From assembly GCA_001824275.1 (NCBI GenBank), contig MHWW01000002.1, positions 13,266 through 77,265 on the forward strand: 64,000 nt of DNA, in the 5' to 3' direction. How positions within the stretch are numbered: position 1 is the stretch's first letter; every line of letters starts with the position of its first letter. Below are positions 1,125 to 54,448 of the stretch, in pieces. The DNA is from Candidatus Zambryskibacteria bacterium RIFOXYC1_FULL_39_10. Its GTDB lineage: Bacteria; Patescibacteriota; Minisyncoccia; Phycocordibacterales; WO2-35-19. The translations under genes were made by a program, and so were the position numbers. The notes beneath the pieces were generated by a model, which was not told the origin of the DNA, did no database searches, and saw nothing but the letters and a program-made list of their open reading frames with translations.

Positions 1125-2537
1125 TCAATTTTCATTTAAAAACTTTTTGCCAATTTCAAATAAAATATTTTCATTACTGTGCGATGACATTAATTGTACA
1201 CCAAGTGGCATATTATTGGTTCTGGATAATCCAAAAGGCAAGGAGATGGCGGGGCAACCTACGATGTTGGCAGCAACAGTAAAAACATCGGCCAAATAAT
1301 TTTCTAGCGGAGTTTTTTTCTCCCCTATTTTCCAAGCGGGAAACGGAGTGGTCGGAGTGAGGATAGCGTCAACCTTTCCAAATGCATCTTTAAATTCTTC
1401 GCTGATTTTTTTGCGAGCCTGCATCGCTTTACCATAATACGAATCATAATATCCAGCTGAAAGTATGTAGGTTCCTAAAATAATTCTCCTTCGAGCTTCA
1501 CTGCCAAAACCTTCACCACGACTTTTTTTGTAAACTTCTAAAAGATTTTCCCCTTCCACTGACAAACCATATTTAATGCCATCAAATCTGGCAAGGTTTG
1601 ACGAAACTTCGGCCGGCATCACGATGTAATAAACCGCAAGCGCCTTGTCTATATTTGGAAGTGAAATGTCTTGTATCTCATAACCCAGATTTTTAAGTTT
1701 TTTAACTGATTCTTCAATATTTTTCTTGGTGTCTGCATCAATGCCGTCGCCGTCTAAAATGTGATAAGGAACTCCTATTTTAAAATTTTCAATTTTCAAT
1801 TTAGAATTTTCAATGTCAATGCTTGTACTGTCCATCTTGTCTTTGCCTTTGATGGTGTTGAAGATAATTTCGGCGTCAGAAACGGTTTTGGTAATAGGCC
1901 CTATGACATCAAGGGACGAGCCCATAGCCATGAGCCCATAACGGGAAACACTACCGTAGGTCGGCTTAAGGCCCACCATTCCGCAGAAACTAGCCGGCTC
2001 CCTCACCGAGCCGCCTGTGTCAGACCCAAGGGCCCCTAGAGCCATATTTCCGGCCACAGAGGCCGCCGAACCGCCACTTGAGCCTCCAGAGACCCTAGTC
2101 GGATCTAGAGGGTTTTTGGTCACCCCAAAGGCTGAATTTTCGGTCGAACCGCCCATGGCAAATTCATCCATATTGGTGCGTCCTAAAAATATGGCATTTT
2201 GGTCTAAAAGTTTTTGGGCGGCAGTAGCAGTATAAATGGCTCTATAATTTTCTAAAATCTTAGAAGCTGAGCTGGCCTTTTTGCCTCTTATTAAAATATT
2301 ATCTTTGATAGCCAAAGGAATACCAGTCAGCTCCCCCGCACCACCTGCATCAATAACTTTTTGCGCCTCTTCAGCATTTTTCAAAACATCATCATAAACT
2401 TCCAAAAAAACATTGAGCTCTTTATTTTTATCATTTATATTTTCCAAATAAAATTTGGCAAGTTCAACAGCCCCAAGCTCTTTGGAATCTAAAAGTGTTC
2501 TAGCTTTTTGTATTGTTAAATTTGATAATTCTGACAT
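1125..2537 (-). CDS. gatA: Glu-tRNA(Gln) amidotransferase subunit A (amidase signature family).
   Basis: 470 aa with the Gly/Ser-rich amidase signature GGSSGGSAASVA and the catalytic region. gatC lies immediately upstream. Confidence 0.9.
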   Translation of the reverse strand: MSELSNLTIQKARTLLDSKELGAVELAKFYLENINDKNKELNVFLEVYDDVLKNAEEAQKVIDAGGAGELTGIPLAIKDNILIRGKKASSASKILENYRAIYTATAAQKLLDQNAIFLGRTNMDEFAMGGSTENSAFGVTKNPLDPTRVSGGSSGGSAASVAGNMALGALGSDTGGSVREPASFCGMVGLKPTYGSVSRYGLMAMGSSLDVIGPITKTVSDAEIIFNTIKGKDKMDSTSIDIENSKLKIENFKIGVPYHILDGDGIDADTKKNIEESVKKLKNLGYEIQDISLPNIDKALAVYYIVMPAEVSSNLARFDGIKYGLSVEGENLLEVYKKSRGEGFGSEARRRIILGTYILSAGYYDSYYGKAMQARKKISEEFKDAFGKVDAILTPTTPFPAWKIGEKKTPLENYLADVFTVAANIVGCPAISLPFGLSRTNNMPLGVQLMSSHSNENILFEIGKKFLNEN

Positions 2538-2578
2538 TGGAAATTTATTGAAAATTGTAAATTAAAAATTGAAAATTC

Positions 2579-2917
2579 TTACAGTATCTTCTTAACCTTC
2601 AAATATCCATTTTCTTTATTTGGAAATTCTCTTAAAACATCGTCGGTATAATTGCCCGACTCATTTGGGTTTTGGTCTTCTCTGAAAACATTCATAACGC
2701 CCCCCTTGAAAAGCTCCACGTTTTCGCTTTCCAACCCTCTTACAACAAGAGGGGGGTTCTCGGACACTTCATTTTCATCTGAATGAAAATTTTGAATGAT
2801 TTTCACATAATCCAAAATAGAGTCCATCTCATGAGCAAGACTTTCTACCTCTTTTTCTGGTATTTCTATCCTGGCCAAATCAGCCAATTTTATTATTTCT
2901 TCTTTGGTAATCGCCAT
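2579..2917 (-). CDS. gatC: Glu-tRNA(Gln) amidotransferase subunit C.
   Basis: Starts MAITKEEIIKLADLARIEIPEKE, a typical GatC N-terminus. Directly upstream of gatA. Confidence 0.8.
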   Translation of the reverse strand: MAITKEEIIKLADLARIEIPEKEVESLAHEMDSILDYVKIIQNFHSDENEVSENPPLVVRGLESENVELFKGGVMNVFREDQNPNESGNYTDDVLREFPNKENGYLKVKKIL

Positions 2918-3000
2918 GGTTCAATAATAACATTTATTTTACTGTTTTCCATTATTTGCAGAAACAAAAATTTAATCGTATAGTCTTTATGGAGATACCT

Positions 3001-5425
<2,425 letters not shown>

Positions 5426-21263: not shown

Positions 21264-21608
21264 TTATTTTTTCTTTGTGTCAGCTGTCGCCTTGGCAGAT
21301 TTAGCTGCACTTATTTCATCCTCTTTTTTCTTGGCTTCCAAATCTTTTTGCATTTTACCACCGTGTTTAATAAATTTGCGTGTAAGTGAAAATTCTCCCA
21401 ATCGGTGACCTACCATATCTTCAGTAACAAAAACTTCAATATGATCGCGGCCGTTGTGCACTCCAAAAGTGAAGCCCACCATTTCCGGCGCGATGACGCA
21501 GGCTCTAGACCAAGTTTTAATCACCCCAGTTTCCTGTGGTTTTTTACCTTCAACTTTTTTAATCACCCTAGGATCTACATAGGGTCCTTTTTTGACTGAT
21601 CTAGACAT
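21264..21608 (-). CDS. rpsS: 30S ribosomal protein S19 (with a Lys-rich C-terminal tail).
   Basis: Contains KGPYVDPRV...[15 protein letters not shown]. Confidence 0.9.
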
Positions 21609-31537: not shown

Positions 31538-32062
31538 CTATGATTGGCCGTCTCTACTCCTCACCAATCCCCTGCCACAGTAGACACAGTTAGAAACATC
31601 ACTGTCTGTAGTAGCTGGAGAACAAATTCCACTCATGTTGCAGAGAGATTCTTGGCCATTTACAAAGACAGAAGAACGCAGATTATCTACAAAAGCTACA
31701 ACTTCACGAAGAATGTCATAGCGCTTGAAGGTAAACTTAGGATGACTTATACCCTCAATCAGACGTGTGATGTGAGCATCTCGATGTGCAACCGCTATAA
31801 CAGGCTTTCCATAAACCTCTATCGCAGTCGCCAATTCATAACCAAGTCCGATTGCTGGATAGTCGCATATAGCAACAAACACATCACATCCAGCAACGCA
31901 TTTTTGTACATCCCACTCATAAACTTCTCTTGCGGTTCCAGCAACCAAACCAACGAAATCAAGGACCGTGTATTTGATCCTCAATTCGTTTTTAAGAGCT
32001 TCAACAGATTCGCGAAACTCTTCTGGGGCCTGGGTTAACGAACAACCTACATAGATTTTCAT
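31538..32062 (-). CDS. Nucleoside 2-deoxyribosyltransferase-like protein with a Cys-rich C-terminal tail. GC-shifted.
   Basis: MKIYVGCSL...DVFVAICDYPAIGLGYELATAIEVYGKPVIAV matches the NDT/LOG-like Rossmann pattern. Strong SD (GAGGAG). Start trimmed to 32062. Confidence 0.55.
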   Translation of the reverse strand: MKIYVGCSLTQAPEEFRESVEALKNELRIKYTVLDFVGLVAGTAREVYEWDVQKCVAGCDVFVAICDYPAIGLGYELATAIEVYGKPVIAVAHRDAHITRLIEGISHPKFTFKRYDILREVVAFVDNLRSSVFVNGQESLCNMSGICSPATTDSDVSNCVYCGRGLVRSRDGQS

Positions 32063-32111
32063 ATATACTCCTCTCAAACAACTTCCTGTTTTAGCTTACA
32101 CATTTTAAGCA

Positions 32112-32257: not shown

Positions 32258-32677
32258 TCAACGCACTTCTACGCCCATGCTCCTACACTGACCGGCGATT
32301 ATTTTGACTGCTGCCTCTAAGTCATTGGCATTTAGGTCAACCATTTTGACTTGAGCGATTTCTTCCAATTGTTTGCGAGTAATGGTGCCAACTTTTTGAC
32401 TTGGGGTTTTACCCGCGCCTTTTTCAATACCGAGCGCCTTTTTGATAAGACTTGATGCTGGGGGGGTCTTCAAGACAAAATCAAAAGTGCGGTCTTCGTA
32501 GACATTGATTTCAGCTGGGACTAGACCTTCCATACCCCTAGTAGCTTCGTTAAATTTTGTGACGAATTCACCAATATTAATACCGGCTGGCCCCAAAGCG
32601 GTTCCAACAGGAGGAGCAGGAGTCGCCTTACCTGCCGCAATCACCAATTTTATTTTTTTTGTTATCTTTTTTGCCAT
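32258..32677 (-). CDS. rplK: 50S ribosomal protein L11.
   Basis: Starts [30 protein letters not shown]. No rplA follows it. Confidence 0.95.
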
Positions 32678-32828: not shown

Positions 32829-33374
32829 TTAAATCTTTTTGACCTGCAAGAAATCGAGTTCTACCGGAGTCTCACGGCCAAACATAGGTACGAGCACTTT
32901 CACCTTACCTCTTTCTTCATCTACATTACCCACTTTGCCTTCCAAATCTTTAAACGGCCCGTCAACTATCTTGACTGTGTCATCTAGAGAGAGGTCAATG
33001 TTGTGTTTAACTTTTTCCGAATTCATTCGTTTGAAAAGTTCTTCTACTTCTTTTGGGTCAAGTGGCACAGGGAAAACTCCAGCACCAACGAAACCCGTCA
33101 CGCGAGGAGTATTGCGGACTACATACCACGAATCATCGGTGACAATCATATCTACCAGCACATAACCGGGATATATTTTTTCCTCTTCTTCAGCTCGTTT
33201 GTTGCCTTTTATTTTTATCTTTTTTTCGGTAGGCACTAAGACATTAAAAATCTTGTCTTCCATACCCAAAGACTCGATGCGTTGTTTTAAATTTCGCATC
33301 ACCGCGTTTTCATAACCTGAGTAGGTATGAATAGCGTACCAATTTCGACTTTCTTGTATTTGTTGTTTGCTCAT
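32829..33374 (-). CDS. nusG: Transcription termination/antitermination factor NusG.
   Basis: NGN domain (WYAIHTYSGYE) and a KOW domain. Confidence 0.9.
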   Translation of the reverse strand: MSKQQIQESRNWYAIHTYSGYENAVMRNLKQRIESLGMEDKIFNVLVPTEKKIKIKGNKRAEEEEKIYPGYVLVDMIVTDDSWYVVRNTPRVTGFVGAGVFPVPLDPKEVEELFKRMNSEKVKHNIDLSLDDTVKIVDGPFKDLEGKVGNVDEERGKVKVLVPMFGRETPVELDFLQVKKI

Positions 33375-41172: not shown

Positions 41173-41261
41173 AGTCTAGTTGTTTAATTTAAATAAAATA
41201 CTCCCACTACTTAATATTATACCAAATCAAATATCTCGCACCAGCATTGTGTGGATTGCTA

Positions 41262-41657
41262 TTAACTTTGAAAATCAATTTCAAAAGAGTACATTCCCAT
41301 TCCACAGGATCCTTGTAAAGTCCCCAGTTTAGAATCACCCAATTCAATATCAGTTAATCCAGAAATAGGTAAATTTCTGCTTATATTTAAACTTGGAATA
41401 CGGACCGACGAGGAACAATCGAAAGTACCGTCCGTGTTAAATCTTAACACAGTAGGGACACCCGCCTTGGCGACACTCTTTCTTGGTAAGTATCCTCCTC
41501 TAGCATTTATTTCTACAATCTGAATCCCATTTTCAATTGTTACATTATTTACAGAAGCAACATTTTCACTTGTGGTTTTTGGACTACTTTTGCTAAAAAT
41601 AAAAGCTCCTCCAATGAGGACTAAGGCTATAATTACTGATGTTATTGTTCCTTTCAT
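41262..41657 (-). CDS. Cupredoxin-like domain protein (putative metal-binding), membrane-anchored.
   Basis: N-terminal TM helix then IQIVEINARGGYLPRKSVAKAGVPTVLRFNTDG...CSSS...CGMGMYSFEI, resembling the Cupredoxin_1 family. Confidence 0.5.
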   Translation of the reverse strand: MKGTITSVIIALVLIGGAFIFSKSSPKTTSENVASVNNVTIENGIQIVEINARGGYLPRKSVAKAGVPTVLRFNTDGTFDCSSSVRIPSLNISRNLPISGLTDIELGDSKLGTLQGSCGMGMYSFEIDFQS

Positions 41658-41664
41658 AATCTTA

Positions 41665-42717
41665 TTAAAAATTAAATACTGGCGGAATAACTCCAATAAC
41701 AACCAAAGAATTTATAAGGTTAAACAGAGCAAACATTATAACAATAAGGCCGGCGGATTTAAAGAAAATGCCAGACTTGCTACTGTTTTGAATACTGAAT
41801 GAGCTAAAACTAATCAATGCTAAAACGGGCAAAGTGCCAAGAGCAAAAGCAAACATAGTAAGTCCCCCTTGCACAAAACTACCGGTTGAAAGGGTATAAA
41901 TCTGCATCGATTGAGTAAAGCCACAAGGTAGAAAGAAAGTGGCGATACCCACGAGTAGCGGGGTTAATGTGTGATTAAACTTTGATATACCATGAGCATG
42001 CTTAGCTATAAACTTTGGCATTGATGGTTGCAATTTTTTGGCCCAAGAGAAAGTATCAAGAAGATTAATACCCATCATAAGCATCACTAAACCTATAATT
42101 ATTCCAAGTAGAAACGTGCCGATAGTACCCAATTGAAACGTGGCGCCAAGCACACCAATCACTCCGCCAAGTATAAAGAAAGAAACTATACGACCGATAT
42201 GGAAAAGAATTTGAGGTTTTATTTTACTTGTCCTGAGCGAAGTCGATGGATCTCCCTCTTTAGCAAATGTAGCTGACATAGAAAGCACAAGGCCACCAAC
42301 CACCGCCATACAAGTTGAAAGCGAAGCAACGATACCAATGACAAAAGCGGTGCCGTAAGTCACATTGCCGGCATTTACCAGATTGACTATACCCATTTTT
42401 TGCAGAGTCACAAAGAGCACCGCGAAACCAATCGCAATCGGTATTGCGACTTTGAAATCTCCCCATTTCTTTTCTTTGATCTGTTTTTCAACAGACACGG
42501 TGTAGCCATGAGGTTTAACTGATTTAGTTAACTCGGTAGCTATCTGTTCTAAAGTTTTATCACCAAAGTCTCCCACAATTTCAACTGTATTATTTTTGAG
42601 ACTGGATTTGGCTGAAGTCACATTTGGTAAATCATTAAGCTCACTTTCAGTTAAAAGCACGCAAGCACTGCAATGCATTCCGTGAACATGAAAGGTATAA
42701 GTTTTTTGTACTGGCAT
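41665..42717 (-). CDS. HMA (heavy-metal-associated) domain fused to a polytopic membrane domain carrying paired Cys. Possible metal or thiol transporter.
   Basis: N-terminal GMHCSACV HMA motif, then about eight TM helices with STCMAV and FLPCGFTQS. Confidence 0.55.
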   Translation of the reverse strand: MPVQKTYTFHVHGMHCSACVLLTESELNDLPNVTSAKSSLKNNTVEIVGDFGDKTLEQIATELTKSVKPHGYTVSVEKQIKEKKWGDFKVAIPIAIGFAVLFVTLQKMGIVNLVNAGNVTYGTAFVIGIVASLSTCMAVVGGLVLSMSATFAKEGDPSTSLRTSKIKPQILFHIGRIVSFFILGGVIGVLGATFQLGTIGTFLLGIIIGLVMLMMGINLLDTFSWAKKLQPSMPKFIAKHAHGISKFNHTLTPLLVGIATFFLPCGFTQSMQIYTLSTGSFVQGGLTMFAFALGTLPVLALISFSSFSIQNSSKSGIFFKSAGLIVIMFALFNLINSLVVIGVIPPVFNF

Positions 42718-42777
42718 AGGTTATATATTATATACCCCCCTATGGTATATAACAAGTATAAACTATTTTAGATTAGA

Positions 42778-43758
42778 CTATATTCCACAACCACTTTGTT
42801 GTTTTGGAGTAGGGACCGAAACAGGAGTTGCTTGACCAGCATCTACCCCACACCCATTACTACTTCTGGAGCTACTAGGAACCGTAACCTGTGACGATAT
42901 ACTCCTGAAACCAGAACTACTGGAATACTCAATACCTAGCATTTCTTGAGGATTTACATCTGACCACTCAACCCCTTTTTTCTCTTTCATATAAGTGGCG
43001 ATGGTGATATAGGTATCGGGAAACCAATATGAGTTGACTGCCAAAGCCGCCTTCCACATATCTTGCTCGCTTACGCCTTGAGAAGCCATAAGTTCCAAAA
43101 ATCCAAGCATAGCCATACCATGATTGCAATCCGGGAAGTGGGTTGAATTACCACAACAAGGTCTGTATATTCCACGCGATACTTTATCCACCAAGGATTG
43201 CTGTTCTGGTGTCAGGTTAAAGTATATGTGTCTATTGTAGTGATCCATTGGACTACCCACGGCCACAGTCCAGCCACCAGTTGAAGCGAAATTGACCGCT
43301 CCGCCATATTGAGGATTATTCATTTCTTTTGAATCGACTAAAATTGGGTTTGCATTTGAAAGGCCGAGAGCCCACAATAAGTTTAGAATATACCCCGCAT
43401 TATCTTCATTAATTATTATTTTGCCATTATTGTCTCCAGACAATAATTTTTCATACTCCTCCGTAAACCCACGGCTTGCATAGAGAGCCTTAAATTTTTC
43501 TTCATCAATAGCTCCCGAACTTATAAGTTTTTTGCCTAAATCACCCCAAGTTACCGGAAGCTCTACTCCATTACTAGGCAAAACTTTTTCTTCTAATACT
43601 GATTTTTCTTGAATATTTTCTGGAGCTATGCTTATTTTCCTTGGGCTATCAGAAATTTTTAGTCTTGAGTTATACATCCAAGCACCGGAAAGCAAGATGC
43701 CGGCAATTATTATACTTATCGGAAGTGAAAGTATTTTTTCTAATTTATTTTTTTCCAT
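42778..43758 (-). CDS. Secreted hypothetical protein with a CC-x5-H-x3-DC-x-HG motif (putative metal site).
   Basis: N-terminal TM helix or signal peptide. Contains RPCCGNSTHFPDCNHGMAMLG and a C-terminal Ser-rich tail with Cys. Confidence 0.45.
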   Translation of the reverse strand: MEKNKLEKILSLPISIIIAGILLSGAWMYNSRLKISDSPRKISIAPENIQEKSVLEEKVLPSNGVELPVTWGDLGKKLISSGAIDEEKFKALYASRGFTEEYEKLLSGDNNGKIIINEDNAGYILNLLWALGLSNANPILVDSKEMNNPQYGGAVNFASTGGWTVAVGSPMDHYNRHIYFNLTPEQQSLVDKVSRGIYRPCCGNSTHFPDCNHGMAMLGFLELMASQGVSEQDMWKAALAVNSYWFPDTYITIATYMKEKKGVEWSDVNPQEMLGIEYSSSSGFRSISSQVTVPSSSRSSNGCGVDAGQATPVSVPTPKQQSGCGI

Positions 43759-43764
43759 ATTATT

Positions 43765-44001
43765 TTAGTTACAACAATCTTCTAATTTTTCCATAATTTC
43801 TTTTACATCTTTATTTTTTACATTTGTATTACTTTCCCCAACCTCTCTTAATCTGCGAACAACTTCTTTTATTCCAAGACTTTGAATATCATTAAGAATT
43901 TGCCTGCGTTTTTCACACTTAGGACAATGCGGTATATGCAAGACCTTTGTAAGCCCGGCAATAGCATCTCCAAATTTAATTCGTTTTGTTTCTTCAGACA
44001 T
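43765..44001 (-). CDS. Small Cys-motif protein (CPKC ... C-terminal DCCN).
   Basis: 78-aa ORF. Confidence 0.4.
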   Translation of the reverse strand: MSEETKRIKFGDAIAGLTKVLHIPHCPKCEKRRQILNDIQSLGIKEVVRRLREVGESNTNVKNKDVKEIMEKLEDCCN

Positions 44002-44011
44002 ATTGATTAAA

Positions 44012-44791
44012 TTAGATAAAGAAAATTAATACTCCAATAATCACCATCGCTAAACCAGCCCAAAAATGAACTTTTTTAGTATTTGTGGTTTTCCATTCTT
44101 GCATTTTTTCTACCAAGACTTTATCAGCCGACACCCAGAGCACGACGACAAGCGGTATGCTGAGAATAAGATTGTAAAAGATGAGATAACCAAATCCTTT
44201 AAGATAAGTTACTTGGTCACGAAGCAATCCAATAACCATAAGGTACGGCCCACCCATACAAGGAAACTGACAAATACCGACTAAAGCTCCCAACCCAAAA
44301 GCGGCCACGAAAGAAGTTTTCTCCATTAACCCAGCCATCGTAGTGTACAAAGACTTTGGAAGTTTCAATTTCAAAGGAAATCTTGGAAAGAAATAACCAA
44401 CAAGATTAATAATTCCAAACAAAATCAAAAGTGACGCTCCAAGTTTACCCATGAAATGCGGAGTGTTGAACAAATGCAATACTTTCAATATCCCCAAACC
44501 AATCAAAAAATAAGCAGTGAAAATACCGGCGATATAAGCACCACCAATTTTGATAATTTTACTACGAGTCATCTGTATACCAAACAGAAATGCAATCGTT
44601 ATAAGTAAAATTGAAAAAGAACAAGGGTGAACACTGTCGAGTAAAGACGAGAAAAAAACTAACGGTAAAAGCCAAGTACCTCCTCTACTTAAATTGTAAA
44701 TTAAGCCAGCCGCACCATCGCTATTTTTTAGCACTACAATACCTACAATTACCGCCAAAACCACACCAATAATAATTGCGATTTTTTTCAT
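44012..44791 (-). CDS. ccdA: CcdA/DsbD-family thiol-disulfide transfer membrane protein.
   Basis: Conserved Cys in TM1 (SVHPCSFS) and TM4 (GICQFPCMGGP). Confidence 0.6.
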   Translation of the reverse strand: MKKIAIIIGVVLAVIVGIVVLKNSDGAAGLIYNLSRGGTWLLPLVFFSSLLDSVHPCSFSILLITIAFLFGIQMTRSKIIKIGGAYIAGIFTAYFLIGLGILKVLHLFNTPHFMGKLGASLLILFGIINLVGYFFPRFPLKLKLPKSLYTTMAGLMEKTSFVAAFGLGALVGICQFPCMGGPYLMVIGLLRDQVTYLKGFGYLIFYNLILSIPLVVVLWVSADKVLVEKMQEWKTTNTKKVHFWAGLAMVIIGVLIFFI

Positions 44792-44793
44792 AA

Positions 44794-45300
44794 TTATGGA
44801 GTTACTGTTGCCTTAATTTCCAACTGCAAAGCATTACCGGCAACATCGGTAAGAGTAATAAATCTATCTATAAATCCAACCCCAGCGGGTCCGTGTGCAT
44901 TAGGATCGTAAACTACACGAATAATACGATTTTCACCAGCTTTAATAATTTCATTAGCTGGCGGCACAAAACCCATACCAGGCATTTTAAATGGACCTTT
45001 CATACTGCCGTCTGGACTAATAATAAACGCACTAGTACACATACAGGAAGTTAGAACAGTTTTTAAGTTAATATCTTGAACAGTAGGATTAGTGACAGTA
45101 AATTCTTTGGTGACATTACCGTTTTTCATCGAGATAGTTCCAAAATCATAAAGAGTTTCTGAAGCGATAAGGAGAGCTTCGGAATTATTTTGAGAAGCAC
45201 CCTGAACCGATGCTGATGTCCCACCTTTGATAAAATAGCCCCACACAAATAATCCCATTACCGCCACAATAATTAAGATAATGATTGTTTTTATTTTCAT
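44794..45300 (-). CDS. DUF1573 domain protein (SCxCT motif), membrane-anchored.
   Basis: YDFGTISMKNGNVTKEFTVTNPT...LTSCMCT... matches the DUF1573 pattern. Confidence 0.55.
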   Translation of the reverse strand: MKIKTIIILIIVAVMGLFVWGYFIKGGTSASVQGASQNNSEALLIASETLYDFGTISMKNGNVTKEFTVTNPTVQDINLKTVLTSCMCTSAFIISPDGSMKGPFKMPGMGFVPPANEIIKAGENRIIRVVYDPNAHGPAGVGFIDRFITLTDVAGNALQLEIKATVTP

Positions 45301-45392
45301 AAAGTTTAAATTAGTTAAATAATACAAAAAGCCCTTAATAAGGACTTTTTGCAACACTTCAAAAATTCTAAAAAGAATCTAAGAAGTGCCGC

Positions 45393-45809
45393 TTATACTA
45401 TAGTTGGACTATTTTCGAAAAGAGAAAGCCAATGTATTATTTTTCTAGTACTAGAAAAAACTGGCGAATAATCATAAAAACGATTCTTTATAAATGTAAT
45501 GTATTTAAATATATTTTGACCGGTAAAAAGTATTAGAAATACGCTCGCAAAAATAAAAAGAGAAGCGAGCAATATCGTCAATCCATAGTCTATCGTTACA
45601 TTTATAAATGATTGATAAGAAGAAATATAGTGAATGGCTGAAGCGACTGTATTTTGTACACAATCAGATGTATCTGCAACAGAAAACGGACATTGCCCCA
45701 ACATTTGCCCATCTGAATTATGTATCATGGTGAAAATACCAAAAATTAGCAGTGACATAAATGATACCAGAATAAGTGACGCTATTATTTTTTTGAATAA
45801 AGCTGACAT
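45393..45809 (-). CDS. Hypothetical membrane protein.
   Basis: 138 aa with three hydrophobic helices. Confidence 0.45.
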   Translation of the reverse strand: MSALFKKIIASLILVSFMSLLIFGIFTMIHNSDGQMLGQCPFSVADTSDCVQNTVASAIHYISSYQSFINVTIDYGLTILLASLFIFASVFLILFTGQNIFKYITFIKNRFYDYSPVFSSTRKIIHWLSLFENSPTIV

Positions 45810-45828
45810 ATAAATTACAAATACTTTT

Positions 45829-46056
45829 TTAGCTTAAATCTTTTTTCTTGGACTCAAACTCTTCTTTATCAATTTCACCTTTTGCATATCTCTCTTTTAA
45901 AATTTCAAGAGCACTTGAATTTGATCTAGGACTTGAGTTTTTACCCCCAACTTCACGCACAATCCAAACAATAAAAACAACAAGCAAAACCCAAAAAACA
46001 ACCATCATTATGCCACCTCCAAACCAACCTCCATAATCGTTATAAAATCCGTACAT
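45829..46056 (-). CDS. SHOCT domain membrane protein.
   Basis: TM helix followed by LEILKERYAKGEIDKEEFESKKKDL, the SHOCT motif. Confidence 0.6.
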   Translation of the reverse strand: MYGFYNDYGGWFGGGIMMVVFWVLLVVFIVWIVREVGGKNSSPRSNSSALEILKERYAKGEIDKEEFESKKKDLS

Positions 46057-46089
46057 AATATTTTATATTAGTTAATAATTACATTCATT

Positions 46090-48441
46090 CTACAACTTTT
46101 TAGTTTTTAAGCGTAGGGAATTACCGACCACCGATACCGAAGACATGGCCATAGCAAAACCAGCAAAAACTGGGTTGAGGAGCCAGCCAAATATCGGATA
46201 AAATAGACCGCCAGCCAAAGGTATCCCCACAATATTATAAATAAAAGCCCAAAAAAGATTTTGTTTAATACCGGTCATCGTGATTTTTGAAAGTTTTATG
46301 GCTTTAACCAATTTTGAAATATCACCATGCAAAAGAGTAATCCCGGCTGATTCAATGGCCACGTCCGTTCCTGTCGCCATAGCAATACCCACATCAGCTT
46401 GAGCCAAAGCCGGCGCGTCATTGACCCCATCCCCCGCCATGGCCACGATTTTGCCCTCTGCCTGTAATGCTTTAATTTTATTAAGTTTATCTTCTGGCAT
46501 TACTTCGGCTACTACTTCATCTATGCCAATTTCTTTTGCAATAAAATTGGCTGTGTTTTTATTATCCCCAGTCAGCATCACTACTTTTATATTTAATTTG
46601 TGAAGATTTTTAATAGCTTCTATCGCTTCTGGCTTTACCGCGTCAGCGACCATTATCACCCCCAAAACTTTTTCTTTAGTGGTTAAAACAATAGGAGTTT
46701 TTCCTTCCAATGTTTCTTTTTCAATTGATGTTGTGTTAAAAGACAAATTTAGATCTTTTACAAGTTTTGTATTACCCGCAAAATATTCAATATTTTCAAC
46801 AACACCTCCAACTCCTTTACCTTTTATAGCTTCAAAATTTTGCACTTCAATAAAATTGATATTTTTCCCCGCCTCTTCGGTGGGCAGGCCTTTTGCATAA
46901 GAGACTACGGCGTGAGCGATTGGGTGCTCGGATTTATTTTCCAGTGAAGCCAGCACGGCAATGAGTTCATTATCAGTTTTGTCAGAAAAATTTTGAATAG
47001 AAACTAATTCAGGTTTACCACGAGTAAGTGTACCAGTCTTATCAACCACCACCACATTAACTTTGTGAAGTTTTTCAAGAGTACCAGCATCTTTAATAAG
47101 TATTCCTTCTCGTGCACCTTTACCAACACCAACAATAATAGCGGTGGGCGTGGCTAACCCCAAAGCACACGGACAGGCGATAACCAAAATACCCACGAAT
47201 GATACCAAACCAAACGAAAGTGCCTGCGAAAAACCAAGGTACTGTGTACCTACCAAAAGCCAGAGACCCAAAGAAACAAAAGACAAAACTAAAACAATAG
47301 GCACAAAAACACCAGAAATTTTATCGGCCAACGCCTGAATAGGAGCTTTGCTCCCCTGGGCATCTTCAACCATTTTAATAATTCTAGCCAACATTGTTTC
47401 AGACCCCACTTTGGTAGCTTTAAAGATGAAAGAACCACTGGTGTTTATTGTTCCAGCCACCACAGTGTCCCCTATTTTTTTTGAAACTGGCATTGGCTCA
47501 CCTGAAATCATTGATTCATCTATATGCGACGAACCTTCAATAATAATCCCATCAACAGGAATATTGCTTCCTGGTTTTACTATAATCAAATCTCCGTGGA
47601 CTACATCGTTTATAGATACTTCCAATTCTTTGCCATCACGCAATACCAGAGCTGTTTTAGCTTGCAGATTTAAAAGTTTTTCTATAGCATCTCCGGTTTT
47701 TAATTTTGATCGGGCCTCCAAATATTTACCAAGCGTTATAAAAGCGATAACCACAATAGCCACATCATAATAACTTTGTTCCACGTTTATAAAAGGTTTT
47801 AGACTTTCTTCAAAAGCACTTATGACAAAACTGTATAACACCGCAACCAGTGTCCCCAGACCAATAAGAGTATCCATATTAGCCTTGCCATAACGGAAAA
47901 ATCTATAAAGCCCTAGTAGATACGGTTTACCAACTACAAAAAGGGTGTAAGTAGCCAATATAGGCAAAAGATGATGAAAAAACTCACTCCAAAAAGTTGA
48001 CATCATCGGTATAATTTCAAATTGAGCAAAAATATCCCAACTCATAACAAAAATACTTATGATGACAATTGGGATAAGAGAAAAAAGATTATTGTGCATA
48101 CTTTTTAGTTCAGCCAGTTTTTCATGCTTTGACTGATTAAGTCCTAAATGCTCGGCATGTTCGTCTTTTGACATACCCATTGTTTCTGCTGTTTCTAAAA
48201 TTAAAGAATACCCCAACGGTTCTATTTTTTTAGAAAGATTTTCGGGACTAGTTTGTGTATCATCAAAATCTATTTTTACATTTTCTGTCACATAATTTAC
48301 ATCTACTGATTGTACTCCTACTTCTTTTTTAAAAGTTTTTTCAATAATACCGGCGCAAGAAGCGCAATGCATACCTTTTACCCGCACACTAATTTGAGTA
48401 TTATTTTTTGTTGCAATATTATGTTTATTGGTAGTGTCCAT
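46090..48441 (-). CDS. copA: Copper-translocating P1B-type ATPase.
   Basis: HMA motif GMHCASCAG, TM6 CPC (ACPCALGLATP), DKTGTLT, and GDGVNDAP. Confidence 0.9.
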   Translation of the reverse strand: MDTTNKHNIATKNNTQISVRVKGMHCASCAGIIEKTFKKEVGVQSVDVNYVTENVKIDFDDTQTSPENLSKKIEPLGYSLILETAETMGMSKDEHAEHLGLNQSKHEKLAELKSMHNNLFSLIPIVIISIFVMSWDIFAQFEIIPMMSTFWSEFFHHLLPILATYTLFVVGKPYLLGLYRFFRYGKANMDTLIGLGTLVAVLYSFVISAFEESLKPFINVEQSYYDVAIVVIAFITLGKYLEARSKLKTGDAIEKLLNLQAKTALVLRDGKELEVSINDVVHGDLIIVKPGSNIPVDGIIIEGSSHIDESMISGEPMPVSKKIGDTVVAGTINTSGSFIFKATKVGSETMLARIIKMVEDAQGSKAPIQALADKISGVFVPIVLVLSFVSLGLWLLVGTQYLGFSQALSFGLVSFVGILVIACPCALGLATPTAIIVGVGKGAREGILIKDAGTLEKLHKVNVVVVDKTGTLTRGKPELVSIQNFSDKTDNELIAVLASLENKSEHPIAHAVVSYAKGLPTEEAGKNINFIEVQNFEAIKGKGVGGVVENIEYFAGNTKLVKDLNLSFNTTSIEKETLEGKTPIVLTTKEKVLGVIMVADAVKPEAIEAIKNLHKLNIKVVMLTGDNKNTANFIAKEIGIDEVVAEVMPEDKLNKIKALQAEGKIVAMAGDGVNDAPALAQADVGIAMATGTDVAIESAGITLLHGDISKLVKAIKLSKITMTGIKQNLFWAFIYNIVGIPLAGGLFYPIFGWLLNPVFAGFAMAMSSVSVVGNSLRLKTKKL

Positions 48442-48480
48442 TTTTGTAATAAAATTTAAATTTTGTTTTAGTGTGCGGGT

Positions 48481-48744
48481 TTATTTCCTCTTCAAACGAT
48501 AAACTTCCAATATTTCTTTAGTGGCTTTGCCTCCCTTACCTTCATTTATCTGAGGAATAACACAAGAACTCAAATGATTTTCCATTAGAGCATCTTCAAT
48601 ACTAGATAACGCATTTTTGACTGCAGAAGTTTGAGTAATAATATCAATACAATAAACTCCTTTTTCTACCATGTTTTGTAGACCACGAACTTGCCCTTCA
48701 ATAATATTTAGCCTTCTTAAAATCCTTGATTTTGGTGTAACCAT
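48481..48744 (-). CDS. csoR: CsoR/RcnR family metal-sensing transcriptional repressor.
   Basis: Contains RLNIIEGQVRGLQNMVEKGVYCIDIITQTSAVKNAL...HLSSC, the DUF156 pattern with conserved Cys and His residues. Confidence 0.8.
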   Translation of the reverse strand: MVTPKSRILRRLNIIEGQVRGLQNMVEKGVYCIDIITQTSAVKNALSSIEDALMENHLSSCVIPQINEGKGGKATKEILEVYRLKRK

Positions 48745-48773
48745 AAAATTATACTTAAAGCTATTACCACCCC

Positions 48774-48802
48774 ATACTATACCCCCGGGGGGTATTAGTC
48801 AA
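48774..48802 (-). promoter_or_regulatory. csoR promoter with an embedded operator: -35 TTGACT (48797-48802), 17-nt spacer, -10 TAGTAT (48774-48779). The spacer is occupied by the palindrome ATACCCCC-GGGGGGTAT (48779-48795).
   Basis: The palindrome matches the CsoR-type operator consensus ATACCC...GGGTAT. Confidence 0.6.
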
Positions 48803-48868
48803 GTAAAGGAAGTGGGGATATCCTAACTGTTACTACCTGATTTGTTCCTTAATAATATGTAAACAAAC

Positions 48869-48895
48869 TGCCCGCAACACGTGGTGTTGCGGGCA
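48869..48895 (-). terminator. Terminator hairpin downstream of the Cys-rich gene.
   Basis: CCCGCAACAC-GTG-GTGTTGCGGG followed by a U-rich tract on the minus strand. Confidence 0.55.
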
Positions 48896-48897
48896 AG

Positions 48898-49206
48898 TTA
48901 TTCGGGCAGTCTGTCTCTGATTTCTTGAGACAGTTTTGGAACACAACCAAGGCAGTAGCCAAATTGGGTTTCTGGGTCCATTTCCATCTCATCATGACTT
49001 GTTAACTCACCGCAGTTGTCACAAGTTGAAGCATATTCACAGACTGCCTCTATGCACCTACCATCTATCGTATCGCAAGAGTCGCAGTTCCCCGACGGCT
49101 CACACTCCTCACAGTGGGTTTCGCATGAGCAACATTCTCCTAGCTCAGTCTTCTCAAACCATGATTTTTCTACCATAATCCCCTCTTCAAATACTATACT
49201 ACTCAA
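48898..49206 (-). CDS. Cys-rich small protein (17 Cys in 102 aa). Candidate metallothionein-like metal-binding protein.
   Basis: Contains ECCSCETHCEECEPSGNCDSCDTIDGRCIEAVCEYASTCDNCGEL. It lies immediately upstream of csoR-copA and has higher GC. Confidence 0.5.
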   Translation of the reverse strand: MSSIVFEEGIMVEKSWFEKTELGECCSCETHCEECEPSGNCDSCDTIDGRCIEAVCEYASTCDNCGELTSHDEMEMDPETQFGYCLGCVPKLSQEIRDRLPE

Positions 49207-49296
49207 AATCTCCCAAAAGACAAATGGTTTTATTAAATTATTTTTTAAATTCTTTGCCCTTCGCTATGCTCAGGACACTGAATTTTTATGGTCATT

Positions 49297-49632
49297 TCAT
49301 TTATAAAGTATATTAAGAGCTAGAACAACAACTAAAATCACAATTGCAGGATACTTTATTTTCCTACCAGGAATATCCATCTTCAATATTTTGTAAGCGT
49401 AATAACTTAGGAAACTGGAATCATAATTTATGCTTGGTTCCACCTTTTTTCTTAATAAAAATTCCCATCTCGTTAATGGGCAATACCCCAAAAATATTTC
49501 GGCCAATAAAACCAAAGAAGTAATGATTAAATGGGTGGTCTGAAGAATTGGGTAATACCAACCAATCAAAACAATTATTACCACTAAGATGTGGAGGGAG
49601 AGTATAAAATTAGCCCAAAAAATATATTTCAT
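49297..49632 (-). CDS. Small membrane protein (DUF2784-like; CPLTRWE motif).
   Basis: 111 aa with three TM helices. Confidence 0.45.
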   Translation of the reverse strand: MKYIFWANFILSLHILVVIIVLIGWYYPILQTTHLIITSLVLLAEIFLGYCPLTRWEFLLRKKVEPSINYDSSFLSYYAYKILKMDIPGRKIKYPAIVILVVVLALNILYK

Positions 49633-50581: not shown

Positions 50582-50845
50582 TTATTTTTTGTCGGTTTTA
50601 GTGATTTTTTCCAATTCCTCTTGCATTCTACTAAGTTCTGACTGATGCTGACTCATTTGTTGTCTGATGCGATCTACTTCTTGTTCTAATTTTGCCGCTT
50701 CACCTTCAGCTTTTTGAAGCTCTTGTTTTATTTTATCTGCCTCCGCCTTATGTTTATCAAGCTCTCGTTCTTTTTCTTGCAAATCGCGAGTTTCCTTTTC
50801 AATTTCTCTTTTTAAACTTTCCAATGCTTGTGTTGATGCACTCAT
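50582..50845 (-). CDS. Coiled-coil protein (88 aa).
   Basis: Heptad-rich, E/K/Q-rich sequence. The ORF-track N-terminal extension (MMVVIAQLAERF...) is the translation of the tRNA-His gene, so I trimmed the start to MSASTQ. Confidence 0.5.
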   Translation of the reverse strand: MSASTQALESLKREIEKETRDLQEKERELDKHKAEADKIKQELQKAEGEAAKLEQEVDRIRQQMSQHQSELSRMQEELEKITKTDKK

Positions 50846-50877
50846 AATAAATGGGTTATTTAATAAAATTTCAATTT

Positions 50878-50954
50878 TGGGGTGGCCAGCGGGTTCTGCC
50901 CCCGCGACCTCTTCTTTCACAGAGAAGCGCTCTGCTAGCTGAGCTATGACCACC
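50878..50954 (-). tRNA. tRNA-His (anticodon GUG) with encoded G-1, discriminator C73 and an encoded CCA. D-loop and T-loop are non-canonical.
   Basis: Hand-folded from the minus strand: G(-1) GTGGTCA TA GCTC AGCTAGCA GAGC G CTTCT CTGTGAA AGAAG AGGTC GCGGG GGCAGAA CCCGC TGGCCAC C CCA, 77 nt. Acceptor, anticodon and T stems pair perfectly. A18 and G54/G55 replace the usual G18 and T54/T55. Confidence 0.65.
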
Positions 50955-51070
50955 ATCATAAAAAGTTTATAGCTGAGAGCCTGTCTGCCGACAAGGCAGG
51001 CTTAAAGCTTGAAAGCATTTTCGCATAAAATATCACTTTTTTCCAGCCTCCCAAGAATTTTTTTATTTTT

Positions 51071-52942: not shown

Positions 52943-52944
52943 TG

Positions 52945-53026
52945 TGCCCAGGAGAGGACTCGAACCTCCACGCCTTGCGGCTTACCCACCTCAAGGGTAA
53001 ATGTCTACCAATTTCAACACCTGGGC
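52945..53026 (-). tRNA. tRNA-Leu (anticodon GAG), type II with a long variable arm.
   Basis: Hand-folded: GCCCAGG TG TTG AAATTGGTAGA CAT T TACCC TTGAGGT GGGTA AGCCGCAAGGCGT GGAGG TTCGAGT CCTCT CCTGGGC A. Canonical TTCGAGT T-loop. Confidence 0.8.
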
Positions 53027-53599: not shown

Positions 53600-54448
53600 T
53601 TATCTCTTCTTACCCACCTTTCTTCTGCTAACAATAAACTTGTTTGAATACTTTTTGGATCGGCGAGATTTCTGACCCTTGCCAGTTGGTTTGCCCCATA
53701 GGGAAATCGCTCTTCGACGACCTCTACCTTGTCTACCCTCACCTCCACCGTGTGGATGATCAACTGGGTTCATAGCTGTACCACGAACAGTTGGGCGAAT
53801 GCCTTTCCAACGGCTTTTGCCCGCTTTACCATAATTTTCAAGTCTTTTTTCTTCATTTGAAACTTCTCCAATACTTGCCCAGCAAGTTTCTTTAACTTTA
53901 CGTATTTCAGTAGAAGGCATTTTTAAATCAACAGAGCCAGCGTCTTTAGCAATCACCTGGACGAAGTTTCCAGCCGAACGAGCAATCCTTGCTCCGCCTT
54001 TTGGCTTGAGTTCAACATTGTAAACCGAAGCACCAACGGGGATTTCTCGAAGAGGCAACCGGTTACCTTGTTTTATTTCTGCATTTTCTGCGGTCACTAA
54101 TTCTTCGCCAACTTTGACACTTTTTGGCAAAAGAACATATCTTTTTTCACCATCTTTATAAACTGCTTGACCAATAAAACCAGTGCGGTTTGGATCGTAT
54201 TCAACCGAAACAATTTTATAAGGAATATTTATTTTATTGTATTTAAAATCTATCTCTCTGTATAACCTCTTGTGGCCTCCACCTTTGTGGCGGACAGTGA
54301 TCCGGCCAGCGCTGTTTCTACCCACCGCCCTTTTTCTACCAAAAGTAAGAGCTTTCAACGGTTTGTTTTTGGTCAAAATTGATTTCAAAGAGACGACTGT
54401 CATGCCTCTTCTTGATTTTGATGTTGGTTTGTAAGTTTTGATTGCCAT
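53600..54448 (-). CDS. rplB: 50S ribosomal protein L2.
   Basis: 282 aa, uL2-like. Confidence 0.95.
   Translation of the reverse strand: MAIKTYKPTSKSRRGMTVVSLKSILTKNKPLKALTFGRKRAVGRNSAGRITVRHKGGGHKRLYREIDFKYNKINIPYKIVSVEYDPNRTGFIGQAVYKDGEKRYVLLPKSVKVGEELVTAENAEIKQGNRLPLREIPVGASVYNVELKPKGGARIARSAGNFVQVIAKDAGSVDLKMPSTEIRKVKETCWASIGEVSNEEKRLENYGKAGKSRWKGIRPTVRGTAMNPVDHPHGGGEGRQGRGRRRAISLWGKPTGKGQKSRRSKKYSNKFIVSRRKVGKKR

Follow-up and report, generated by a model that had tools for sequence, protein, structure and literature searches.

A small protein with an exceptional number of cysteines, encoded directly upstream of the copper genes csoR and copA, raises the question of whether it handles copper together with them or has another function. 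The gene lies at positions 48898..49206 on the minus strand of a 64,000-nucleotide stretch of Candidatus Zambryskibacteria bacterium RIFOXYC1_FULL_39_10 (contig MHWW01000002.1, positions 13,266 to 77,265), hereafter the window. An earlier note, based on the letters of this stretch, had proposed a metallothionein-like, metal-sequestering protein linked to csoR-copA or, alternatively, a zinc-ribbon regulator. Our analysis points to a structural-zinc module, which is quite probably neither a metal sink nor a member of the copper regulon. We assign the protein to a so far undescribed family of small, acidic zinc-ribbon proteins that occurs in the Patescibacteria, also called Candidate Phyla Radiation (CPR), and in some tailed phages.

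Gene and Cysteine Conservation in the Family

The open reading frame (ORF) and its possible starts are as follows.

48898..49176, minus strand: coding sequence of the small acidic Cys-rich protein of predicted zinc-ribbon type, 92 aa plus stop (ORF list and sequence)
49204..49206, minus strand: alternative TTG start, giving a 102-aa ORF and preceded by GGGAG at 49210-49214
48936..49178 and 49016..49306, plus strand: antisense ORFs of 80 and 96 aa, overlapping the gene

The ORF of 102 aa reported earlier does exist when 48898..49206 is read from TTG, as in the ORF list of the window, and the peptide quoted for it is exact. Nevertheless, the ATG at 49176 is the more likely start: a Shine-Dalgarno-like GAGGGG stands 3 nt upstream (49180-49185), and public gene calls begin there, the identical 92-aa protein (P0001) being called on at least 24 public contigs. 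The TTG version only adds the N-terminal residues MSSIVFEEGI, which contain no further Cys. The gene is also present in the data sets JGI 3300025088, JGI 3300025073, and SRR2177362. The protein has 13 Cys and not the 17 first counted, at residues 15, 16, 18, 22, 25, 31, 34, 41, 46, 52, 55, 75, and 78, and the announced clusters are indeed present as CC (15-16), CxC (16-18), and five CxxC. This makes the ORF the most Cys-rich of the window (12.7-14% Cys versus 0.89% over all window ORFs, binomial P ~2e-12; every other ORF is at 5.1% or below). P0001 is also strongly acidic, with an isoelectric point (pI) of 4.1 and 23 D+E versus 6 K+R.

The G+C content (GC) of the gene is 0.46, and 0.44 at third codon positions (GC3). 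It is thus raised relative to the immediate neighbors (0.30-0.33), as had been observed, but it is no outlier in the genome, as it ranks third of the 86 window ORFs (+1.8 standard deviations) and is comparable to the housekeeping genes of the window. Recent horizontal transfer was rejected as the cause of the raised GC because both GC and GC3 fall within this housekeeping range, and because the chromosomal slot of the gene is also common to related CPR contigs.

A single-sequence search returned 12 close homologues. An exhaustive profile search of 1.84 billion proteins found 95 homologous cluster representatives at 50% identity, and the profile search of a larger database gave 252 clusters at 90% identity, all named "hypothetical protein" save one "predicted sulfurtransferase". 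Scans of Pfam, NCBIfam, PHROG, and PADLOC with the protein and 12-60 homologues assigned P0001 to no family. In PHROG, 12 members gave only scattered matches (best E = 0.0074, at most 2 of the 12 members per family), and 0 PADLOC families were matched at E <= 0.1. Sequence searches of the PDB with P0001 and with a 60-member profile yielded nothing better than E = 0.17, and a literature search returned no description of a small zinc-ribbon protein of CPR bacteria.

Conservation was evaluated as frequencies per position over an alignment of 180 family members, which share the core motif (D/E)xIDGRxIxAVxEYASTCDGCGELTxHxxMxMDxxTQLGYCxxC. Four cysteines forming two CxxC knuckles, C52, C55, C75, and C78, occur in 98-99% of the members. 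The N-terminal cysteines are less constant (C16 78%, C22 88%, C25 67%, C31 81%, C34 84%), C46 is found in 18%, and C15, C18, and C41 are each found in 1-2%. Besides the cysteines, G39, R40, Y48, A49, S50, T51, and D53 are each present in about 95% or more of the sequences, a His stands at position 61 in 86%, and hydrophobic or aromatic residues are conserved at W6, L12, I37, V45, Y48, L58, M66, L/F72, and Y74. The number of Cys ranges from 3 to 16 in the family (mode 9-10), and acidity is a family-wide trait (median pI 4.4 in 91 members).

Minimal members of about 60 aa, such as P0046, P0051, and P0056, carry just the four universal Cys. Since these proteins keep nothing else of the cysteine set, the obligatory element of the family would be one four-Cys site built of the two CxxC knuckles. 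The N-terminal module (C16, C22, C25, C31, and C34) appears to be an addition in most members, P0001 included.

The same alignment virtually rules out that the ORF is no gene at all. A chance ORF or opposite-strand shadow could be suspected from the two antisense ORFs, of which comparable examples recur in four further loci (L015, L016, L018, and L019). However, the sense frame is conserved in 180 homologues, and its invariant Cys and motif columns persist at a nucleotide divergence that would scramble a non-coding frame, which argues for a real gene and effectively refutes the shadow. Also, the ratio of non-synonymous to synonymous substitution rates (dN/dS) is below 1, and a Shine-Dalgarno-like sequence and a terminator are correctly placed. 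We thus read the antisense ORFs as shadows that the conserved sense frame casts, and not as genes.

Predicted Fold and Comparison with Known Metal-Binding Proteins

The AlphaFold prediction that the earlier note had called for favors a zinc ribbon over a metallothionein. AlphaFold2, run on a 12-sequence alignment, gave a confident and compact model (mean predicted local distance difference test score, pLDDT, of 83.4, with zero segments below 50), in which short strands flank both knuckles and three short helices are present (H6-9, H42-47, H84-89). This model and the nine conserved hydrophobic or aromatic positions contradict the claim that the protein has no hydrophobic core. A Foldseek search of the model against the PDB and BFVD gave no match below E = 0.1, and the only structural neighbors, all weak, were structural-zinc domains (ZZ, C1, RING). 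The best PDB profile match, which was non-significant, aligned TCDGC...YCxxC with the ZZ domain of HERC2, and the matches of 60 members to generic zinc-ribbon models of Pfam were scattered and below threshold, with none significant. From the two conserved CxxC knuckles with flanking strands in the model, we conclude that P0001 is most consistent with a structural-metal domain of zinc-ribbon or treble-clef type, which would have no close solved relative. The alternative proposed earlier is thus supported in one half, the zinc-ribbon architecture; its other half, a role as a regulator, is conceivable.

Conservation also suggests how the cysteines may be distributed among metal sites. C52, C55, C75, and C78 would hold one structural Zn(II), and a second metal site may be formed by four of the five N-terminal cysteines C16, C22, C25, C31, and C34. 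A cross-braced two-site core of the RING/ZZ type was rejected, as the members with four Cys retain only C52, C55, C75, and C78.

The ZZ finger (PF00569; HERC2, p62/SQSTM1, CBP, RSC8, Ada2) resembles the family in fold class only. ZZ domains build a second, cross-braced Zn site from a middle CxxC and a C-terminal HxH, whereas the P0001 family has no Cys pair between C55 and C75, where only H61 is found, and no C-terminal HxH; its extra Cys are N-terminal and dispensable in many members. Moreover, the Pfam ZZ model matches 1 of 60 members (E = 0.092), and ZZ domains are eukaryotic, while the P0001 family is found in CPR bacteria and phages. P0001 was therefore rejected as a ZZ domain proper, the second ZZ site being absent. 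Generic zinc ribbons (Zn_ribbon_NOB1, Zn_ribbon_8, DZR, and the DksA/TraR C4 finger) share with the family the two CxxC knuckles on beta-hairpins, the small size, and the frequent occurrence as stand-alone genes, but the family has its own core, DGR...YASTCDxC...TQLGYCxxC, and a strong acidity. A strong match to a DksA-type finger had been named in advance as refuting a new metal-sequestering protein; only 2 of 60 members match this finger (PF01258), at E = 0.17, and the model lacks long helices and hence the DksA coiled coil.

Metallothioneins of the SmtA/BmtA type (PF02069) are likewise small and Cys-rich, and the nine common Cys and His61 of the P0001 family are superficially similar to them. 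SmtA holds a Zn4Cys9His2 cluster on a treble-clef-like fold and contains a zinc-finger-like element. However, the profile search proposed in the earlier note found no SmtA/BmtA match for P0001 or 60 members: P0001 has no match to any Pfam family at E <= 1, and PF02069 is not among the 25 families matched by the 60 members. The spacing of the cysteines also differs, many members have only four Cys, and the family conserves aromatic and aliphatic residues. Near-complete Cys conservation, which is expected of a metallothionein, is limited here to C52, C55, C75, and C78. No SmtB/ArsR sensor is linked to the P0001 loci, and the other loci examined are not devoted to metal homeostasis. The copper storage protein Csp is also different, as it is an all-helical four-helix bundle, while the AlphaFold2 model of P0001 consists mostly of short beta strands.

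An Fe(Cys)4 redox protein of rubredoxin type, which would be small and acidic and carry electrons by means of a site with two CxxC knuckles, is a further reading that the minimal members bring to mind, as they are acidic, about 60 aa long, and limited to two CxxC(G) knuckles. Weak matches to PknG_rubred (3 of 60 members, best E = 0.0022) and to Zn_ribbon_PF0610 go in the same direction. Nevertheless, neither P0001 nor the 60 members scanned match rubredoxin in Pfam, and there is no sequence or structure match to it. The knuckles are 19 residues apart in the family, while this spacing is about 29 residues in rubredoxins. Recurrent redox-partner genes were also not found among the neighbors, so that a redox context is absent, and we regard this reading as highly improbable.

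Transcriptional Boundary and Copper Island

The direct succession of the Cys-rich gene, csoR (PF02583), and copA was described correctly in the earlier note, and the question is whether it reflects a functional link. The features of this region are the following.

49177..49247, minus strand: 5' leader with putative own promoter region of the Cys-rich gene, conserved with sister contig L009 and including GAGGGG
48868..48896, minus strand: intrinsic terminator of the Cys-rich gene, a 13-bp stem with a 3-nt loop followed by TTTGTTT (terminator scan)
48774..48802, minus strand: csoR-copA promoter TTGACT-17-TAGTAT, outside the Cys-rich gene and marking its boundary (promoter scan)
48481..48744: csoR, directly after the Cys-rich gene (PF02583, E = 5.8e-25)
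46090..48441: copA, after csoR (HMA, E1-E2 ATPase, and HAD domains, CPC motif)
~41260-48861: copper-resistance island of 7.6 kb, from csoR to a cupredoxin-like gene, beginning directly past the terminator
42732-42748: second, degenerate CsoR-operator-like site TAC-N9-GTA, inside the island, ahead of the HMA-DsbD_2 gene (41665..42717)

The hairpin that had been noticed between the two units is a strong one. Its RNA fold has a free energy of -26.5 kcal/mol and a z-score of -6.9, none of 200 shuffled sequences being equally stable, and L009 retains it with a G-C pair replaced by G-U. Of 49 homologous loci, at least 17 have a hairpin (z < -2.5) directly 3' of the stop codon, even ahead of rpoB or fusA, when judged by z-scores and inspection by eye; such hairpins being common in the family, the gene would generally be a transcriptional end point. 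On the 5' side, homology with L009 begins at 49247 and is about 90% identical over the leader, while the DNA farther upstream is unrelated. The promoter scan of the leader 49177..49247 gave no candidate above threshold; read by eye, a putative promoter TTGTCT-16-TAGTAT (8/12) may be present.

The spacer of the csoR promoter contains a perfect palindrome, ATACCCCCCGGGGGTAT (48779-48795), for which 0.04 matches were expected in the palindrome search. The published operator of CsoR is a G-tract pseudopalindrome TAC-N9-GTA (PMC3902906). The palindrome ATACCCCCCGGGGGTAT agrees with this pattern and is a putative CsoR operator. The degenerate site ahead of the HMA-DsbD_2 gene is the only other G/C-rich TAC-N9-GTA site, and it also lies inside the island, pointing to a CsoR regulon of two promoters that does not extend beyond the island. 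No TAC-N9-GTA was found upstream of the Cys-rich gene (49150-49330). Co-transcription with csoR-copA was rejected, as a strong terminator stands between and csoR has its own promoter and operator. The Cys-rich gene appears to lie outside the CsoR-controlled promoter and would not be a member of the CsoR regulon.

The adjacency was also compared with the closely related organism of contigs L009 and L031, in which the Cys-rich gene is present and the island absent. Nucleotides 878-1264 of L009 match window positions 49247-48861 at 89%, which covers gene, leader, and terminator, and, 10 nt farther, nucleotides 1275-3754 match window positions 41259-38778 at 94%. Since the terminator in L009 abuts DNA that lies 7.6 kb off in the window, the whole island must be an indel, at the junctions of which neither an integrase nor flanking direct repeats were seen. 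From csoR onward the island encodes CsoR, CopA, a SHOCT protein, a membrane protein of 138 aa, a DUF1573 protein, a second membrane protein (259 aa), a CxxC protein of 78 aa, a protein of 326 aa, an HMA-DsbD_2 membrane protein, and a cupredoxin-like protein. Cys32, His57, and Cys61 can be read in the csoR product, with the spacings of 25 and 4 residues that the Cu(I) ligands of characterized CsoR proteins have. In a tblastn search of the window CsoR, CopA, and DUF2784 against all fetched loci, only contigs identical to the window matched. With 48 metagenome loci added, CsoR and CopA were found in 1 of 55 non-redundant loci, which is that of the window's own strain, and in 0 of the 54 others. 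The csoR-copA adjacency thus seems accidental, resulting from a neighboring copper island in the strain of the window. The slot of the gene downstream of rplB would predate the island, because this position is common to related CPR genomes.

Another small gene stands out in the island itself. The 78-aa ORF at 43765-44001 (minus strand) contains CPKC and, at its C-terminus, DCCN; with 5.1% Cys it ranks second in the window in Cys content, and it has no Pfam match. Judged by its surroundings, this ORF is more promising as a small metal-handling candidate than the gene flagged at the outset.

Some observations do speak for a metallothionein-like, Cu(I)-buffering partner of csoR-copA, or, in a weaker form, for a zinc-ribbon scaffold recently neofunctionalized in this strain by extra thiols. 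P0001 has 13 Cys in 92 aa, is acidic, and has a copper island directly downstream. Of the 18 amino-acid differences from its island-free sister P0002, four are Cys in P0001 (15, 18, 41, and 46), at which P0002 has F, S, W, and N; the family consensus is E/D, S/Y, W/F/Y, and N/S, so that the sister residues are nearer to it, and N46C requires two base changes. On the rough assumption that about 3% of substitutions yield Cys, such a proportion has P ~0.002. The dN/dS of the gene against the sister contig is also raised, at 0.57 (23 non-synonymous and 9 synonymous differences), as against 0.03 and 0.15 for the two downstream genes at similar dS. All differences between P0001 and P0002 lie outside the near-invariant motifs (G39-R40, Y48-D53, C55, T70-Q71, G73-C75, C78).

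Against this partnership stand the absence of a metallothionein match in all 60 members, the conserved hydrophobic and aromatic core with its confident fold, and the lack of csoR or copA in the other non-redundant loci. The sister genome retains the gene without the island, the strong terminator precedes the operon, and no CsoR operator was found upstream of the gene. Extra Cys are also common in a family where their number varies so widely, as C46 illustrates, and each test for a functional connection with the copper genes came out negative. Only nine of the 13 Cys of P0001 are family-typical and just four universal, and three or four are peculiar to P0001. The metallothionein-like proposal, including its link to csoR-copA, therefore does not hold in view of the missing profile match, these Cys frequencies, and the indel, and we consider a copper-buffering function quite improbable, in the strong or the weaker form.

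Genomic Neighborhood, Phage Copies and Possible Partner

If the protein is a structural-zinc module, the question becomes what it binds. In the mechanism we propose, the folded acidic domain would be a module that binds another macromolecule, and the invariant surface residues DGR, YAST, D53, E57, H61, and TQ may form the binding face for this conserved partner. The partner would probably be a component of the ribosome or of RNA polymerase, or an enzyme handling RNA or tRNA. This idea comes from the recurrent neighbors of the gene, namely L2, L10/L12, RpoB, S7/elongation factor G (EF-G), cysteinyl-tRNA synthetase (CysRS), and KsgA, and from phage copies that adjoin tRNA and RNA-repair genes.

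Neighbors were counted by a Pfam census of the 93 immediate neighbors in the 55 non-redundant loci. The only recurrent families were ribosomal L2 (4 loci), L10 (3), and RpoB (2), and the single cases include S7, EF-G, L20, CysRS, KsgA, and CorA. A tblastn search of the whole flanks located L2 in 7 loci, RpoB in 3, and S12-S7-EF-G in 1; L10 and L12 were each present in 4 loci, and in three redundant ones as well. The arrangements are listed here with the contigs that show them.

L028 and L035: L2, family gene, L10, L12
L036: L2, L10, L12, family gene, and farther on S19
L043: family gene between L2 and L10, on the opposite strand
L001, L046, and L050: family gene, rpoB
L020: S12, S7, family gene, EF-G
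L025: corA, family gene, cysS
L029: ksgA adjoining the family gene
Window, 32829-33374 and 32258-32677: NusG and L11 genes, in the gap of the S10 operon

In the window, the S10 operon runs EF-Tu...L4-L23-L2 and is broken after rplB. L2 is encoded at 53600-54448 and S19 at 21351-21608, and the gap of about 32 kb between them holds L19, tRNAs, the Cys-rich gene, the copper island, a two-component system, FolD, NusG, and L11. The same split of the S10 operon occurs in the related CPR contigs L028, L035, L036, and L043, where L10-L12 and the family gene are located in the gap. In these related genomes, L2 is about 66% and S19 about 90-95% identical.

Three other features were observed in this gap and near it. 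Directly downstream of the L11 gene, where rplA (L1) is normally expected, stands a 179-aa ORF (31538-32077, minus strand) with 8 Cys (4.5%) and no Pfam match. A tRNA at 50881-50953 (minus strand) was found by Rfam and missed by ARAGORN; it overlaps the 5' end of a 125-aa ORF (50582..50959), the true start of which must thus lie farther downstream. Conversely, a tRNA-Leu(GAG) at 52944-53026 (minus strand) was found by ARAGORN only and is absent from the Rfam scan at gathering thresholds.

The bacterial carriers of the family are metagenome-assembled genomes (MAGs) of Saccharibacteria, Paceibacterota, Moraniibacteriota, and the "Patescibacteria group". One contig, L018, comes from a "Gammaproteobacteria" MAG, and its genes match the Patescibacteria contig L019, with DnaB 99% identical; L018 was probably misbinned. 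Two IMG/VR contigs that carry the gene are true phages, L013 with small and large terminase subunits and L014 with a tail sheath. L002 is phage-like by its matches to a RusA-like resolvase and a head-tail adaptor, as is a 400-kb contig (JGI, P0181) with NT5C, MazG, and DUF1643 genes, and L021 was counted among the phage-like contigs with the family gene as well. Phages would have borrowed the protein.

Genes for RNA processing were also seen close to the family gene. In three unrelated loci (L002, L024, and L025), no more than 3 kb separate it from genes for a 2H-phosphoesterase/LigT-type "2',5' RNA ligase", and in phage contig L014 genes for an RNA ligase and a tRNA-His guanylyltransferase stand about 2 kb or less upstream. 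These neighbors may link the family to RNA repair, or may be a coincidence.

The phage copies bring up another explanation, in which the gene is a mobile, phage-derived "moron" that CPR chromosomes carry passively, and its small acidic product would act as an inhibitor or mimic in conflicts between phage and host, for host takeover or anti-defense. Apart from the phage and phage-like contigs themselves, this would account for the fast evolution, acidity, and sporadic distribution of the family, as well as for the self-contained cassette formed by leader, gene, and terminator, both flanks of which differ between the window and L009. The association with DUF1643 is in line with it too: the family member P0031 is fused to this domain, the family gene overlaps the end of a DUF1643 gene in L023 (1044-1526) and in the 400-kb contig, and a DUF1643 homologue stands 5 kb upstream in L019. 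In the literature, DUF1643 is reported from mobile elements only (phages and staphylococcal cassette chromosomes), with no functional lead, and the domain has no sequence relative in the PDB. On the other hand, the family belongs to no PADLOC or PHROG family, a tblastn search of 50,697 GenBank phage records gave no match, and one pattern searched against 2.9 million viral contigs had only 2 matches. Several CPR loci also share the ribosomal super-operon slot despite a protein divergence of about 35-50%, which indicates vertical inheritance. We therefore consider a moron-type origin improbable.

We thus return to the structural-zinc module and to its most specific version. In this version, the protein would be an accessory factor of translation or transcription specific to CPR/Patescibacteria, which would dock on RNA polymerase or on the ribosome, for example around its stalk, and which phages would have captured to manipulate the same target; its ancestral home would be the ribosomal/RNA-polymerase super-operon (L2, L10-L12, rpoB, S7/EF-G). 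We advance this factor as a tentative and rather unlikely proposal, and hold it equally doubtful that the partner belongs specifically to the translation or transcription apparatus.

Several points weigh against the reading as a structural-zinc module with such a partner. The link to translation and transcription comes from gene neighborhood, and such genes abound in the small genomes of CPR bacteria; the loci with the ribosomal gap stem from related organisms, as the identity of their L2 indicates, and hence are not independent, and hypothetical proteins are the sole neighbors in most loci. The family is also rare, one peptide pattern having given 6 matches in 185,579 species genomes, and hence cannot be a core component. 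Metal-related neighbors do occur in a few other loci, L025 having CorA and L018/L019 a cupredoxin-like gene at a distance of about 2 kb, and Zn, instead of Fe or Cu, is assumed from the predicted fold class. Finally, the strain with the four extra Cys is the very one that has the copper island, and this gain of thiols is the one observation that sustains the weaker, neofunctionalized form of the metallothionein reading.

The fold class of P0001 is thus ordinary and the metallothionein reading fails, while the family itself is new. Independently of the protein, the locus offers a clean case of a 7.6-kb copper island with two putative CsoR operators that is present in one strain and absent in its sister. 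What remains is a conserved, unannotated family of about 250 sequence clusters with a sharp core motif, found here only in MAGs of Patescibacteria (CPR) and some tailed-phage contigs, and located repeatedly in the ribosomal/RNA-polymerase cluster. The ribosomes and transcription machinery of CPR bacteria are known to be unusual, and a lineage-specific accessory protein, if true, would be of interest to the study of translation and transcription in these organisms.

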